DNA from: an uncultured delta proteobacterium | Lineage (GTDB): Bacteria; Myxococcota_A; Polyangia; Polyangiales; Polyangiaceae | Direction of reading: 5' to 3' | DNA length: 64,000 nt | Assembly (NCBI GenBank): GCA_963841435.1 | Contig: CAWJCS010000002.1 | Span: forward strand, 992,001 to 1,056,000 | In this document: piece after piece, positions 39,648 to 45,584 of the stretch | How positions within the stretch are numbered: position 1 is the first letter of the stretch | Layout: each line of letters begins with the position of its first letter | Translations under genes and position numbers: made by a program | Notes under the pieces: model-generated | The model's input: the letters and a program-made list of their open reading frames with translations, nothing else | The model's database searches: none | Told to the model about the DNA's origin: nothing

Positions 39648-40265
39648 GTGCGAGCTTGGCTTTTCATTTCTGAAAGCGCGGATTCGCCGCGGATGTTCCG
39701 CAGCGACTTCCTCGACCTATTCTCGCGCACCCATCCAGTCATCGTTCCGGTCCTCTTCGTTCCGGGCGCCGCTGTGGGCGTCTACGAGAGCATGACGGTG
39801 GGCGGTCGCGGAATCCTCACGACGCTGTTGCTCGTCATGGGCGGCTTCGTGGCGTGGACGCTCGCCGAGTATTGGCTCCACCGCCTGTTCTTCCACTGGA
39901 AGGCGCCCGGCCGCTGGGGTGAACGATTGCACTTTCTCGTGCATGGCGTTCATCACACCTGGCCGCGCGACAAATACCGTCTCGTGATGCCGCCAGCGGT
40001 GAGCATCAGCCTCTACTTCATCTTCCTCACGGTCTTCTTGCTGACGCTCGGCCCGCGCTGGGGCTGGGGCTTCCACGCGGGTTTCGTGGTCGGGTACATG
40101 TTCTACGACCTTACCCACTACTACCTACATCACTACAGTCCGCGGACGGAGTACGGCGTGCGACTCAAGAAGAATCACATGCTGCACCATTTCAAGGACC
40201 CGACGCGCCGCTTCGGCGTGTCGAACATGCTGTGGGATCGCGTGTTCGGAACGGGCCCCCGCTGA
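39648..40265 (+). CDS. Fatty acid hydroxylase/sterol desaturase family (FA2H-like)
   Basis: His boxes EYWLHRLFFH, HGVHH, YDLTHYYLHH, HMLHHF; RLVMPP; FGVS..WDRVFGT. Confidence 0.92.
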   Translation: MRAWLFISESADSPRMFRSDFLDLFSRTHPVIVPVLFVPGAAVGVYESMTVGGRGILTTLLLVMGGFVAWTLAEYWLHRLFFHWKAPGRWGERLHFLVHGVHHTWPRDKYRLVMPPAVSISLYFIFLTVFLLTLGPRWGWGFHAGFVVGYMFYDLTHYYLHHYSPRTEYGVRLKKNHMLHHFKDPTRRFGVSNMLWDRVFGTGPR

Positions 40266-41585: not shown

Positions 41586-42272
41586 ATGCAACTGGTCGTC
41601 AACGGCAGAGCGAGCGCGGTGCCCCTGTGGGTCGTGTCCAACGGGGAGGTCACCATCGGGCCGGTGCGCACGGAGCTACTCCTGCGCGGCATCCGGCATG
41701 GCCGTGTCCCGGCGGACTGTCAGGTGCGAGCCGCCGGATCGGACCAGTGGCGCCCGCTGAGCCAGCTGCGCGAGGTCGCCGCGCTCAACGGTTTGCCTGG
41801 CTCCATCCAGGCCTTCCAACTTGCCGCCGCCGAGATCGCAGAGGCGCCCGACGAGCAGGAGGTGCTGATGAGCCTGCTCCACGGCGCCGCGACCGCGACG
41901 TGCGCCGCGCGTGGTCTCATTCACCGTGTGCGCGCTCCCATCGGTCTGCCCGTGACCTCGTACGCGCTAGGCGGGCTCGACGAAGAGCTCGGCACCGTAA
42001 TCCCCTCGCATGATCCGTCGTACTCGCTGGCGCGTGCCGGTCAGACGCTCATCGGCTCGCCCGACGGCGGCCCTGCCGAGCGCGTCGTCGGTGGGCGCCT
42101 GGGGTGCGGTGCGCTCAAGGGGATCCTCATGGTCCCGGTGAGCTACGGCACCGAGGTCGCCGCCCTGCTCGAGCTCGGCCGCGAGGGCCGCCCCTTCAGG
42201 CTCGACGACGTCGATCAACTGTCGCGCCTGTGCACGCTCGCCATCGCGCGCCTGGAAGACCTCGTCGGCTGA
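41586..42272 (+). CDS. Hypothetical protein: GYF_2/DUF4339-like N-terminus + GAF-like domain
   Basis: WVVSNGEVTIGPV...WRPLSQLREV; C-terminal ILMVPVSYG...ALLELGR..PF...D; AAGGAG RBS. Confidence 0.6.
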   Translation: MQLVVNGRASAVPLWVVSNGEVTIGPVRTELLLRGIRHGRVPADCQVRAAGSDQWRPLSQLREVAALNGLPGSIQAFQLAAAEIAEAPDEQEVLMSLLHGAATATCAARGLIHRVRAPIGLPVTSYALGGLDEELGTVIPSHDPSYSLARAGQTLIGSPDGGPAERVVGGRLGCGALKGILMVPVSYGTEVAALLELGREGRPFRLDDVDQLSRLCTLAIARLEDLVG

Positions 42273-42393
42273 GTGGCCCGCTCGGGGGGCGCCGCCCCCG
42301 CCGGCGCCTCGACCACCAGTGACCCTGCGCCCTTGCCCGGGCCGGTCCGCGGACCTGTCGTCGCACCGTCACGTTTCGTCCACGTCGGATGTT

Positions 42394-42445
42394 TTTCAAA
42401 AGTGAAACCAAATGGCACCCAGACCACGGGTAAGTTGCTGAAATG
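42394..42445 (+). promoter_or_regulatory. Palindromic enhancer candidate plus IHF-like site (copy 2)
   Basis: TTTCA-AAAG-TGAAA (42394-42407) and GGTAAGTTGCTGAAATG (42429-42445) in an AT-rich intergenic patch. Confidence 0.5.
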
Positions 42446-42460
42446 TCGCCCTCTGAGGAC

Positions 42461-42476
42461 TGGCACGCGGTGTGCT
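42461..42476 (+). promoter_or_regulatory. Sigma54 promoter candidate
   Basis: TGGCAC-GCGGT-GTGCT with exact -24/-12 spacing. Confidence 0.7.
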
Positions 42477-42486
42477 GTATAGCTGC

Positions 42487-42587
42487 CTGAAGGCGGCGCC
42501 CTTGGTGCCCCCCCCTCCGCCTCGGTCGCCGCCTCCTTAATCCACTCAACGGCTCGGAGCCACCCCGCTCCGGGCTGTTGCACTTTT
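42487..42587 (+). ncRNA. Candidate sigma54-dependent small RNA (~100 nt) with two C-rich-loop hairpins
   Basis: SL1: AGGCGGCG(42491-98)/CGCCGCCT(42527-34) enclosing a C8 run. SL2: 14-bp stem with a CACCCC loop, followed by CACTTTT. No + strand ORF downstream. Confidence 0.65.
42547..42587 (+). terminator. Intrinsic terminator-like hairpin
   Basis: CAACGGCTCGGAGC/GCTCCGGGCTGTTG with two G-U pairs (valid only on +), followed by a short T tract. Confidence 0.7.
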
Positions 42588-42613
42588 GTGGATCCGAGAA
42601 CGCCGGGCGCCGT

Positions 42614-44572
42614 TCACTCGGGCTCGTCGTCGTGCATCCAGCGCGTCAGCATGGGTGCGAGGACGAAGCAGAACGCCGCCGCAACCGCGGAAGCGATGGC
42701 GATCTTGCCGAAGACTCCACCGTAAATGCCGACGGTGGCGATTGGCAGGACGAGTCCCGCGCCGCCTTCCTCGACCCCGGTGAACTGGGAAATGATGGCG
42801 GCGAGATATTGCGAGAATGCCGTGGCCAGAAACCACGTGCCCATCACGGTGCTGACGAGCAGCCGGGGTGAGAGGCGCGTCACCATGGCAAGCCCCACGG
42901 GCGAAAGGCAAAGCTCACCCGTCGTGTGCAAGAGGTAGCCGAGCACGAGCCACCAGACGCCGACCATGCCCCGGGCGTCCGCAGTCTTCGCGCCGTACCA
43001 GAGCGCGGCGAAGCCGAGCGACAGCTGGAACAAGCCGAGGGAAAACTTCACGGGCGCGCTCGGGTCGCGCCCGCGACGGCCGAGGTTCGTCCAGAGGGCG
43101 CTCAAAACGAGACCGAAGCACAAAATGAAAACGGGATTGGTGGCCTGAAACAGGCTTGCGGGGGTCTCGTCGGCTCGGCTCGCGATCCCCATGCCGACGT
43201 TGTCCGCCGCGACGTGCCACGGAACCGTCGCTTCCGGTGCCTCGTGCGTCGCGCGGAAACGGTCGAGATCCTCGAGCGAGAAGAGCCGCTTGCCGTCGTG
43301 GTAGCCGACCTGCTCCTGGGTGGGCGTGAGCTCGATGACCTTTCCCACGTCGGCGTGGTCGAGGCGGCGTGTCTCACCGACGCGATCGACGTTGCGATCG
43401 GTAAAGTTGTTGATCGAGCTGCCGGCCTGCTCGAAAAACGACCAGAACAGGAGCGAAAAGAAAGTCAGCACGAACACCACGCCGAGCCGCTGGCGTTCGA
43501 CCTTCGATAGACCGGTCATGCGTTTGAGCAAGTAGCCGACGGCGAACAGCCCCGTGAGCGTGAGCACGAGACCGGCTGGCTTGCTGACCTCGGCGGCAAC
43601 CGTCGAAAGCAGCGGATTTTTCAGACTCTCGCGCACGCCGTCGGACAGGAGCACGAGCGGCTCGCCGTCGGCACGCAGCGGCGAGAAGCCGGAGACGAGC
43701 AGCGCGAGCAGCGGCACGGCCAGGAGCGTGGCGACGTAGACGACGCGCTCGGCCGAGAGAGGGCCGACGAGCGGCGTCGTGAGCCGCGTCGAGTCCGGTG
43801 GCGCCCCCGCGCTTTTCGGTACGCCGCCCCGAGCGAGCGCGATGGTGGCGATCACGGCGGCGATGACGAGCGCGACGGCGGCGAGCACGTTCACGGCGAC
43901 GGCCCAGCCGTTGTTCGGACGGAGCACGAGCAGCGCACCGGAAGTGGCGAGTGCGCCGCCGAGAATCATGGTCTGGGCGACGCGCGGGGGCGCGACGAAG
44001 ACGCTGAGCCCGACGAGCATGCCGATCGTCGCCAGGCCGAAACCGTAGTGCCATCCGTACGTCTCGCCGATGTAGCCGCAGAGCAGCGGCGAGAGCGTCG
44101 CGCCGAGGTTGATGCCCATGTAAAAGAGCGTGAAACCGCCGTCGCGCCGCGGGCTCCCAGCCTCGTACAAGGAGCCGACGATCGTGGAGATGTTGGGCTT
44201 GAAGAAGCCGTTGCCGGCGATGAGCAGCGCGAGCGCACCGAAGAAGGCCACGTCCTTTTCGACGGTCATCAAGAGATGTCCCGCCGCCATGAGTGCGCCG
44301 CCCAGCACCACGGCGCGCCGCGCGCCGAGCAGCCGGTCGGCGAGCATGCCGCCGAAGAACGGCGTCATGTACACGAGCGCCGTGTAGGAGCCGTACACGC
44401 CGTACGCGCGGTGGTCGTCGTAGTGTAAGAACCCCTTCAGCATGTAAAAGAGGAGCAGCGCCCGCATCCCGTAGTACGAGAAGCGCTCCCACATCTCGGC
44501 GAAGAAGAGCGTGAACAGTGCGGCGGGGTGACCGAAGAGCGTCGCCGTCTTGTCGTCTTCGGCCGCCTGCAT
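42614..44572 (-). CDS. Proton-dependent oligopeptide transporter (POT/PTR, MFS)
   Basis: Motifs GHP..LF..EMWERFSYYGMRALL, GNGFFKPNIS, FYMGINLG, FEQAGSS, GELCLSPVGL. Confidence 0.95.
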   Translation of the reverse strand: MQAAEDDKTATLFGHPAALFTLFFAEMWERFSYYGMRALLLFYMLKGFLHYDDHRAYGVYGSYTALVYMTPFFGGMLADRLLGARRAVVLGGALMAAGHLLMTVEKDVAFFGALALLIAGNGFFKPNISTIVGSLYEAGSPRRDGGFTLFYMGINLGATLSPLLCGYIGETYGWHYGFGLATIGMLVGLSVFVAPPRVAQTMILGGALATSGALLVLRPNNGWAVAVNVLAAVALVIAAVIATIALARGGVPKSAGAPPDSTRLTTPLVGPLSAERVVYVATLLAVPLLALLVSGFSPLRADGEPLVLLSDGVRESLKNPLLSTVAAEVSKPAGLVLTLTGLFAVGYLLKRMTGLSKVERQRLGVVFVLTFFSLLFWSFFEQAGSSINNFTDRNVDRVGETRRLDHADVGKVIELTPTQEQVGYHDGKRLFSLEDLDRFRATHEAPEATVPWHVAADNVGMGIASRADETPASLFQATNPVFILCFGLVLSALWTNLGRRGRDPSAPVKFSLGLFQLSLGFAALWYGAKTADARGMVGVWWLVLGYLLHTTGELCLSPVGLAMVTRLSPRLLVSTVMGTWFLATAFSQYLAAIISQFTGVEEGGAGLVLPIATVGIYGGVFGKIAIASAVAAAFCFVLAPMLTRWMHDDEPE

Positions 44573-44624
44573 CGAGGGGCCGAGCCTATCATCAAGCTCA
44601 CGGGGCGGGACCCCGATGCGCGTG

Positions 44625-45584
44625 TCAGACGAGGAAGCCGGTCGTTGCCTCGAGCCGGACCGCGGCGTGCGGCAGCCGATCCAGCCGGAAGCTCGCCACG
44701 AGATCGCGCGCGGAGACGGGCTCTTTGGTCTCGATGCCCACGCTCCTGGCTGCCCAGGCGACGATGCGGCGCGCGTCGACGCCGCGGCCCCTGAGCTCTC
44801 GCAGCGCGAGGTCGTGCTCGTGCTTGGCGAGGCGGCGGCCCGTCGCGTCGAGGACGAGTGGGACGTGGACCCAGCTCGGGTGGGGGAGCGAAAGGGCATT
44901 TTGCACGTGCCACTGACGCACCGCGCTCGGCAAGAGGTCTCGCCCGCGCACCACCTCGCTCACGCCTTCCGCAGCGTCGTCGACGGCGACCGCGAGCTGA
45001 TACGCCGGCGCGCCGCCGCGCCTCTGGACGAGAAAATCGCCGACCTCGCTCGCCACGTCGGTCGTGAACGGGCCGTACGAACCGTCCTCGATGGTGACGG
45101 GCCCGGGCGGAACGCGCAGGCGCACGGCGACCGGCCTGCCCGCCTGACGCTCCGCTTCCTCGATGCTCGCGAAGCGATCGCGACACGTTCCCGGGTAGCG
45201 CGGCTCGACCTCGCCTTCGTGAGGCGCTTGCGCGAGGGTCCTGAGGTCCGCTCGCGTGCAGATGCAAGGGTAGGCCATGCCGCTTTCGAGCAGCTTTTGC
45301 ACGGCATCGTCGAAGCGCTCGAGGTGCGCCGACTGCACGCTGGGCTCGCCGTCCCAATCGAGCCCGAGCCACGCGAGGTCCTCGCGCAGAGCGTCGGCGA
45401 GCTCCGGGCGGCTGCGGTCGGCGTCGAGATCCTCGATGCGCAACAGGACTCGGCCCCCCCTCGAACGCGCGTGCCACCAGGCGACGAGGAAGGTGCGAGC
45501 GTGGCCGAGGTGCAGGTAGCCGGTCGGGCTCGGCGCGAGCCGGCCGAGCAGCGCCGGTGCGTCCGCCTCGGCCTTTCGCGTCAT
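44625..45584 (-). CDS. gluQ: tRNA glutamyl-Q(34) synthetase
   Basis: Motifs GRLAPSPTGYLHLGH, LRIEDLD, YPCICTR, YPGTCR, YQLAVAVDD, VVRGRDLL, RLAK. No anticodon-binding domain. Confidence 0.92.
   Translation of the reverse strand: MTRKAEADAPALLGRLAPSPTGYLHLGHARTFLVAWWHARSRGGRVLLRIEDLDADRSRPELADALREDLAWLGLDWDGEPSVQSAHLERFDDAVQKLLESGMAYPCICTRADLRTLAQAPHEGEVEPRYPGTCRDRFASIEEAERQAGRPVAVRLRVPPGPVTIEDGSYGPFTTDVASEVGDFLVQRRGGAPAYQLAVAVDDAAEGVSEVVRGRDLLPSAVRQWHVQNALSLPHPSWVHVPLVLDATGRRLAKHEHDLALRELRGRGVDARRIVAWAARSVGIETKEPVSARDLVASFRLDRLPHAAVRLEATTGFLV

Follow-up and report, generated by a model that had tools for sequence, protein, structure and literature searches.

A predicted sigma-54-dependent small RNA gene with a poly-C loop in the Polyangiaceae, a possible distant relative of Myxococcus Pxr

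Analysis of a 64,000-nucleotide stretch of DNA from an uncultured soil delta proteobacterium of the Polyangiaceae, represented solely by metagenome-assembled genomes (GenBank assembly GCA_963841435.1, contig CAWJCS010000002.1, positions 992,001 to 1,056,000 of the forward strand; the whole stretch is referred to as the window) indicated that the gap between two convergent genes carries a free-standing gene for a small RNA (sRNA). On comparative evidence the element is a conserved, self-contained gene for a predicted regulatory RNA of about 100 nt. We assign a probability of roughly 0.6 to the reading that its product is a trans-acting sRNA and the Polyangiaceae counterpart, probably a distant homologue, of Pxr, the sRNA that gates fruiting-body development in Myxococcus. 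To our knowledge, no sRNA of a multicellular bacterium has been studied better than Pxr, which has no known targets.

The 340-nt gap contains all the motifs that an earlier note on this DNA had named, at the positions given in Table 1, namely an enhancer palindrome, a site resembling that of integration host factor (IHF), a sigma-54 promoter and two hairpins. The note had taken them for an orphan sigma-54 transcription unit, and this is supported by the conservation of the whole unit across relatives.

Conservation and structure of the predicted RNA

A BLAST query covering window positions 42380-42600 was compared with 24 genomes of the same genus and 16 genomes from other families of the order. 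Homologues (E <= 4e-16) were found in 22 of the 24 same-genus genomes, only short C-rich matches in the 16 genomes of other families, and no further copy by BLAST in the genome of origin, where the gene is single-copy. The similarity begins at the promoter or at the predicted start site (+1) and ends past the T tract. Alignment of 23 sequences revealed that the flanks were unalignable while the palindrome, the TAAC..TGAA site, the GG-N10-GC element and the whole RNA body were conserved.

Folding of the 23 homologues with RNAalifold gave two hairpins with 28 pairs, 5 of them showing compensatory changes; such changes occur at 4 of the 14 terminator pairs. Standard pairs made up 99.7% of the cells on the named structure, compared with at most 52.6% in a control in which the partners were slid by 1-3 columns, and the covariation score was 0.227 against 0.150 +/- 0.010 in shuffles (0 of 500 reached it). 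Structural conservation, which the earlier note had proposed to look for by BLASTN and covariation, was found in this alignment. The C8UC loop of hairpin 1 is near-invariant among the homologues. The plus-strand fold has an energy of -53.7 kcal/mol (z = -5.95, with none of 200 shuffles as good) and the minus-strand fold a z of -2.6. Frequent G-U pairs, for example a U-G in 20 of the 23 sequences at one pair, fit only the plus strand, so that the orientation deduced beforehand from such pairs is borne out. The terminator hairpin is followed by CACTTTTG on the plus strand and by no T tract on the minus strand, and hairpin 1, which is conserved in sequence, lacks a T tract.

A frame of 11 codons, GTG CCC CCC CCT ... 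TAA, runs over the C tract and is intact in the window and in most homologues from the same genus, so the element might be taken for the gene of a tiny proline-rich peptide. This explanation is hardly credible: indels of 1-2 nt in the C tract break the frame in 3 of the 23 homologues, one homologue has GCG for GTG, the frame is lost in other genera, and the start codon lies within a stem, with no Shine-Dalgarno (SD) sequence at the proper distance. The claim that the promoter serves no open reading frame (ORF) therefore stands.

The earlier note had also pointed to a CCUCCUU stretch complementary to the SD sequence. Positions 42532-42534 and the following linker do spell CCUCCUU (42532-42538), which equals the anti-SD core of the 16S rRNA 3' end of this genome (...GGATCACCTCCTTTCT). 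The stretch is not fully free, since positions 42532-42534 are paired in stem 1 and therefore only CCUUAAUCCACU is predicted to be single-stranded.

A covariance model, R1, was built from the RNA body only, the promoter and the palindrome being excluded. The suggested Infernal/Rfam search gave no Pxr match at the locus, and R1 revealed a conserved Polyangiaceae RNA. A pattern scan of named genomes matched at least 119 stretches, 80 of which were listed; among the matches listed, R1 confirmed 21, whose record titles read Polyangiaceae, Polyangiales, Myxococcota, Myxococcales, 'uncultured Sorangium' or generic Pseudomonadota/Proteobacteria metagenome-assembled genomes, and the other 59, in unrelated taxa, were chance matches that R1 did not confirm. 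With strict filters, R1 hits were obtained in 29 of 151 Polyangiaceae genomes, representing 21 of 89 genera, the two weakest hits looking like chance. At the level of the order 17 of 151 genomes had a hit, and the 150 genomes sampled from the phylum gave no further convincing one.

Promoter, enhancer and IHF-like site

To evaluate the control region, 57 distinct regions upstream of R1 hits were compared with 55 control windows situated 200 nt further upstream. The -24/-12 element was present at a fixed place in 46 of the 57 loci and in 1 of the 55 controls; in 36 loci and 3 controls the palindrome TT[TG]C-N6-G[AC]AA preceded the -24 element at a distance of 55-75 nt; and a relaxed form of the IHF-like motif, located at -51 to -54 relative to the start of the RNA model, occurred in 20 loci and in none of the controls. 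The IHF-like label at 42431-42443 is based on YAA-N4-TTGATW, which we take to be the IHF consensus, read on the other strand. In several relatives the proximal palindrome is preceded, at about 20-22 bp, by another one, such as TTTCGCGACCGAAA and TTGCGTGCACGAAA; in the window itself this distal palindrome is weak.

Across the 7.78-Mb genome, 530 palindrome-like and 77 sigma-54-like sites combine only once, at this locus, when the palindrome-like site is required to lie 30-130 nt upstream of the sigma-54-like site. Strict palindromes number 3 genome-wide, against 3.4 expected from composition. A second strict TTTCA-N4-TGAAA lies 2.7 kb away, at window positions 39662-39675, inside the coding region of a fatty-acid hydroxylase; it is probably due to chance, since it is absent from two relatives that have the hydroxylase gene. 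Another TGGCAC, at 42413-42418, falls between the palindrome and the IHF-like site; it lacks a properly spaced -12 GC and is not conserved.

The genome contains rpoN and 44 Sigma54_activat matches. A -24/-12 promoter, upstream sites, rpoN, enhancer-binding proteins (EBPs) and a predicted short, terminated non-coding RNA, which together mark an sRNA gene dependent on sigma-54 and an EBP, are hence all present.

Table 1. Features of the predicted sRNA unit, its flanking genes and the candidate activator gene (positions refer to the window unless a contig is given)
Feature	Position	Strand	Basis or remark
Possible distal enhancer site, TTTCG-N4-CGTCG (left half only fits)	42374..42387	+	20 bp upstream of proximal palindrome
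Proximal enhancer palindrome (upstream activating sequence, UAS), TTTCA-AAAG-TGAAA	42394..42407	+	Presumed binding site of a PxrR-type NtrC-family activator
IHF-like site TAAGTTGCTGAAA, reverse orientation (TAA-N4-CTGAAA)	42431..42443	+	Sequence match
Sigma-54 promoter TGGCACGCGGTGTGCT, TGGCAC-N5-GTGCT; -24 GG 42462-63, -12 GC 42474-75	42461..42476	+	Sequence
Predicted small RNA, about 100 nt	42487..42589	+	5' end from promoter geometry, 3' end from terminator
Hairpin 1, 14 pairs, apical loop CCCCCCCCUC at 42508-42517	42491..42534	+	Fold and covariation
Single-stranded linker CCUUAAUCCACU	42535..42546	+	Predicted fold
Intrinsic terminator: 14-bp hairpin (42547-42580), loop CACCCC (42561-42566), T tract 42584-42587	42547..42587	+	Terminator scan
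Inverted unit	42365-42590		Compared with L009, L010, L025 and other relatives
GYF_2+GAF protein gene	41586-42272	+	Left flank of sRNA unit
POT/PTR2 peptide transporter gene	42614-44899	-	Right flank of sRNA unit
PxrR-like NtrC-family response regulator gene	contig 4, 503133-504560 (L230:5134-6561)		Genome of the window

Comparison with pxr loci

The regulators of Pxr are named here as PxrR (Nla19, MXAN_1078) and PxrK, and Pxr itself is RF01812, from Myxococcus xanthus and other Myxococcaceae. According to excerpts of the published accounts, Pxr is a sigma-54-dependent sRNA regulated by PxrR, its gene lies downstream of pxrR (nla19), the gene for an NtrC-like regulator, and the RNA folds into three stem-loops (SL1 to SL3), the loop of SL1 being essential, as a C-to-A change there inactivates Pxr. 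The same excerpts describe M. xanthus as having no hfq and regard pxr as a gene of recent origin that arose within a single suborder, the Cystobacterineae, whereas the host of the window belongs to the Polyangiaceae (Sorangiineae).

A query derived from a primer in PMC5568312, made degenerate at T positions, retrieved 17 metagenome stretches, 9 of which are pxr loci. One metagenomic pxr scored 125.1 bits on RF01812 (gathering score 80), and in one locus the order PAS/GAF kinase - NtrC regulator - pxr - NADH dehydrogenase equals the published order pxrK-pxrR-pxr-NADH dehydrogenase. All 9 loci have a TGGCAC-N5-NTGCT promoter and the SL1 loop UUCCCCCCCA, and each carries two strict TT[TG]CA-N4-TG[AC]AA palindromes 92-148 nt upstream of the -24 element. 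This consensus is also that of the window sRNA family. A CAAGTGCCTGAGAAA site stands between the UAS and the promoter in the pxr loci. No pxr was found by the primer-derived pattern in 401 genomes of the phylum and in two other families, Myxococcaceae-type genomes being seemingly missing from the draws, although pxr turns up readily in metagenomes; the weak hits seen there were judged not to be family members.

Comparison of the two control regions and RNAs showed that the window sRNA shares with Pxr the sigma-54 promoter with palindromes of consensus TT(T/G)CA-N4-TG(A/C)AA, an IHF-like AAGT..CTGA.A site, an RNA length of about 100-110 nt, a C7-C8 loop on the 5' hairpin and a GC-rich terminator hairpin. 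The 5' CUGAAGGCGG is identical in the window and in four pxr loci. The loop of window hairpin 1 is C8UC and that of Pxr SL1 is UUC7A. In the 9 loci the stem of SL3 has the conserved 8-bp segment GCGGCCCG/CGGGCCGC, and the window has CAACGGCUCGG...CCGGGCUGUUG; most relatives have, as in Pxr SL3, a GCGGCC-type terminator stem, (C)AGCGGCC(U/C)GG...CC(G/A)GGCCG(U/C)UG. Unlike Pxr, the window RNA has two hairpins instead of three, with no equivalent of SL2; its stem 1 is longer, it lacks the 5' leader of some 20 nt, and its UAS-promoter spacing is 67 nt compared with 92-101 nt in the pxr loci.

With filters off, R1 found Pxr end to end, at the right place and on the right strand, in all four pxr loci tested, with scores of 25.2, 24.8, 18.7 and 13.6 bits (rough E values of 1.6e-4 to 0.064 over 30 kb); it also scores about 22 bits on other C-loop hairpins. 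A reverse model, R2, was built from the 9 Pxr sequences. Since R2 finds few of the family RNAs and misses the window RNA, homology at the RNA level is marginal, and it is mainly the shared control region and the activator that argue for relatedness.

A PxrR-like activator encoded elsewhere in the genome

The genome of the window encodes, on contig 4, an NtrC-family response regulator with Response_reg, Sigma54_activat and HTH_8 domains. All six PxrR-like proteins from the pxr contigs match it best in this genome: the five long ORFs score 389-437 bits, against 308-345 for the runner-up, and the truncated ORF of L217 scores 268 bits, against 220 for the next protein. In a BLASTP comparison with PxrR-like protein, the contig-4 activator showed 52% identity over 467 residues. 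In a tree of 40 EBPs of this genome and the six PxrR-like proteins, obtained with a quick IQ-TREE search, the contig-4 activator was sister to the PxrR clade (SH-aLRT 98). The recognition helix ...(S/P)xTLWRKM... is present in all six PxrR-like proteins and, among the 40 EBPs, only in the contig-4 activator. Orthologues with 60-87% identity were found in about 130 of the 151 family genomes, the paralogues being clearly apart at 48% or less.

The host genome has a PxrR-like activator carrying the recognition helix of the six PxrR-like proteins and, like M. xanthus, no detected Hfq, which was not found in the assembly (95% complete). The activator gene is preceded by a Ser/Thr protein kinase gene and followed by queA and tgt, with no adjacent histidine kinase.

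The earlier note had spoken of an undescribed analogue or distant relative of Pxr. This view is supported, and the shared enhancer consensus and the PxrR-like activator go beyond the resemblance of architecture. Its strength of claim is also the right one, because RF01812 misses the window RNA and the reciprocal models match weakly. We read the window RNA as a probable distant, undescribed relative or counterpart of Pxr outside RF01812, and file the element as a putative PxrR/sigma-54-dependent poly-C-loop sRNA variant which is not a member of that family.

Occurrence of the enhancer-promoter signature in the family

A signature pattern consisting of the palindrome, a 38-70-nt gap and TGGCAY-N6-TGC, and holding no RNA part, matched 81 places in 56 of the 151 family genomes, while the reversed control pattern gave 4 matches. 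Five large complete genomes contained 4 signature matches and no control match, and each of the 4 has a C7-C10-loop hairpin and a T tract downstream. Units of UAS, sigma-54 promoter and poly-C hairpin occur in each of the complete 12-16-Mb genomes G110, G126 and G151. At 29 of 37 distinct signature places at least 7 C in 9 occur within 100 nt downstream, compared with 247 of 1320 random windows, and most of these C-rich stretches are hairpins with a poly-C loop and a T tract. The signature was found in 54 of 138 genomes with an activator orthologue and in 2 of 13 without (both of the latter 57-85% complete); this trend is in the right direction but is weak, the genomes being related and not independent.

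In one genus (L265 G147:C117, L266 G077:C36) the enhancer and sigma-54 promoter lie about 60 nt after the activator orthologue and drive a response-regulator gene, so that the activator would have protein-coding targets too. In another genome (G116; L243, C279, downstream of 1581) a promoter of the same type precedes several G6-G7 runs complementary to the poly-C loops; this G-rich region could be an antisense or sponge transcript, or merely the other strand of C-loop genes.

Evidence against relatedness and the possibility of an analogue

A number of results weigh against a Pxr counterpart that acts by pairing. At the RNA level, RF01812 gave no match at E <= 10 in window 41800-43200, and its best score genome-wide, found elsewhere, was 18 bits (E 3.1), below the gathering score of 80. 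R2 gave no match at E <= 1 on the window RNA and coincided with family RNAs in 4 of the 12 R1-detected loci (16 searched in all), at 12.6-19.8 bits, a fifth hit being a second C-loop hairpin in L233. Both models may largely score 'C-loop hairpin plus GC-rich terminator'. The T tract of the window terminator is short, with 4 T. As to the regulator, the sRNA gene (contig 2) and the activator gene (contig 4) are unlinked, unlike in pxr; no EBP gene was found in the flanks of the sRNA loci examined, and no pxrK orthologue was detected, the gene ahead of the activator being that of a Ser/Thr kinase. The orthology of the activator was assessed one way, with the PxrR-like proteins against the EBP set of this genome, and the orthologue is far commoner among the 151 family genomes than the detectable sRNA. 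In some genomes, as an exception, the same promoter type drives protein genes. Finally, the complement of loop 1 (GGAGGGGG[G]) was not enriched before start codons: a simple motif count gave 7 of 46, and the control words, reversed or complementary, gave 10-16 of 46-49.

Part of these results would suit a true sigma-54-dependent sRNA that is only an analogue of Pxr, of unrelated origin and role, its C-rich loops and enhancer motif being convergent or derived from a broad-target EBP family. In addition to the misses of RF01812 and R2, the missing third hairpin, the lack of linkage to pxrR or pxrK and the shorter UAS-promoter spacing, such an origin agrees with the excerpted reports that sRNAs with C-rich loops, for example 6C and sX13, arose in unrelated bacteria, and with the sub-threshold score of 21.8 bits that alphaproteobacterial ar7 reaches at the locus. 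An analogue would, however, have to share at once the palindrome consensus, an activator with an otherwise unique helix, an IHF-like site, a sigma-54 promoter and a 5' poly-C-loop hairpin; in most relatives the terminator stem starts, as in Pxr SL3, with GCGGCC, and R1 detects Pxr end to end at the correct place. We regard mere analogy as unlikely, though as an explanation to be taken seriously.

Proposed mechanism and targets

We propose the following course of events for the putative Pxr counterpart (positions in Table 1), in which its transcription and 5' end, the binding of the activator, its targets and its physiological signal are all inferred. The response regulator orthologous to PxrR would be made from its unlinked gene on contig 4 and, once phosphorylated, would bind the TTTCA-N4-TGAAA palindrome and possibly the weaker distal site too. 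IHF would bend the DNA at its site, and the activator would open the sigma-54 promoter, giving an RNA of about 100 nt that would start at about 42487 and stop at the intrinsic terminator. This RNA would expose the C8UC apical loop, the CCUU-containing linker and the CACCCC loop. Without Hfq, the exposed C-rich parts would most likely pair with G-rich mRNA stretches, such as SD regions, and the pairing would change the translation or stability of these mRNAs. The pairing step is proposed because the loop dependence of Pxr and the other C-loop sRNAs, as described in the published excerpts, point to G-rich mRNA sites.

The partner of the poly-C loops might alternatively be a protein, such as a KH-type poly(C) binder, or a different RNA, the transcript then being a protein-titrating or sponge RNA which does not act on ribosome-binding sites of mRNAs. 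The near-invariance of the loops as homopolymer tracts would suit such a role, as would the missing enrichment of complementary sites before start codons, the multiple copies or tandem arrays in some genomes (six copies in G149) and the promoter in G116 that precedes a G-rich region. Yet the precedents with C-rich loops are, in the excerpts, base-pairing sRNAs, and no candidate partner was identified in this analysis; the single-base dependence of the Pxr SL1 loop reported there suits pairing and protein binding equally. Titration is considered improbable.

Relation to other sRNA systems

Qrr1-5 (LuxO), GlmY (GlrR and IHF), CrcZ (CbrB) and NrsZ (NtrC) likewise combine a dedicated NtrC-type activator, a sigma-54 promoter and a short terminated sRNA, and the multi-copy 'sibling' genes of some genomes are a trait common to sRNAs of this EBP/sigma-54 type and the window family. 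LuxO binds TTGCA-N3-TGCAA, the half-sites of which are similar to those of the window palindrome. The spacing of the latter is, unlike in the LuxO site, N4 and not N3, and the sequences of the EBP/sigma-54 sRNAs are unrelated to the window RNA; Qrr, GlmY, CrcZ and NrsZ depend on Hfq or another protein, whereas Hfq was not found here.

The excerpted reports on actinobacterial 6C and Xanthomonas sX13 describe C-run hairpins that pair with G-rich mRNA sites independently of a chaperone, and those on alphaproteobacterial ar14/ar15 describe anti-SD loops. These RNAs and ar7 come from other phyla, and the excerpts describe no sigma-54/EBP control for 6C, sX13 or ar7/ar14. The sole Rfam family scoring at the locus was ar7 (RF02342), with 21.8 bits (E 0.085), far below its gathering score of 60, and the window RNA is not counted as a member.

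Possible age of the Pxr module

Tentatively, and at a little under even odds, we propose that the Pxr module, made up of a PxrR-type activator, a TT(T/G)CA-N4-TG(A/C)AA enhancer, a sigma-54 promoter and a poly-C-loop sRNA, is older than the divergence of Myxococcia and Polyangia and persists across the Polyangiaceae as a fast-evolving, often multi-copy family that includes the window RNA. If so, the enhancer consensus described here would be what PxrR binds, and the account of pxr as a recent invention of the Cystobacterineae would need revision. A related Polyangiaceae module would give a testable consensus for PxrR binding, and the dozens of diverged natural variants would strengthen comparative target prediction; as all of them keep the poly-C loop, the loop would be the likely functional core. 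The RNA would also be the first candidate riboregulator found for the Sorangium/Polyangium group, bacteria of importance for natural products; a limited literature search, and hence a weak negative, found no report of such an sRNA in Sorangium or the Polyangiaceae.

Genomic context and inversion of the unit

The neighbourhood methyltransferase (MTase) - GYF/GAF - sRNA - POT is found again in many relatives. There the sRNA and GYF/GAF are on different strands in 20 of 20 loci, as are the sRNA and MTase in 21 of 21, while in the window the sRNA shares the strand of both genes and is therefore inverted with respect to the 20 syntenic relatives. Since the flanking genes are colinear, only the unit of about 220-250 bp, from enhancer to terminator, was flipped. 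No clear inverted repeats able to explain the inversion were found flanking the unit.

The position of the element between convergent genes, with 24 nt separating it from the POT transporter stop codon, would agree with hairpins that only terminate the flanking genes, with no stable RNA and with promoter-like motifs that are chance occurrences or relics. Across genera, however, the promoter, the IHF-like site and the palindrome keep fixed distances while the surroundings are not conserved; hairpin 1 is conserved in sequence without a T tract; the terminator hairpin has none on the minus strand; and the unit is still complete where synteny is lost and where it has been inverted. In other clades the unit sits in unrelated gene neighbourhoods, and a role as the mere terminator of a particular neighbour is thereby ruled out; terminators without any stable RNA are very improbable.

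The neighbours across genera include the POT transporter, M50/S41/M42 peptidases, an SspB-like protein and a GluRS-like protein. They hint at a peptide or amino-acid theme, which was set aside because the neighbours vary too much among genera.

Tandem and variant forms

Some genomes hold several copies or tandem arrays of the sRNA. The genome G149 (C1:9574194-9576202) contains six tandem units about 385 bp apart, each with enhancer, sigma-54 promoter and a two-hairpin poly-C-loop sRNA, an arrangement that resembles the tandem pxr paralogues reported in Cystobacter. In PMC5568312 such Cystobacter paralogues were expressed in OC delta-pxr cells. In another family of the same order (L070-L075) a three-hairpin variant was observed among the R1 hits. 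Its loops are C6-C7, its promoter reads TGGCAC-N5-TCGCA, and the palindrome upstream differs, being GATCA-N4-TGATT; genes for an SspB-like protein and a histidine phosphatase adjoin it.

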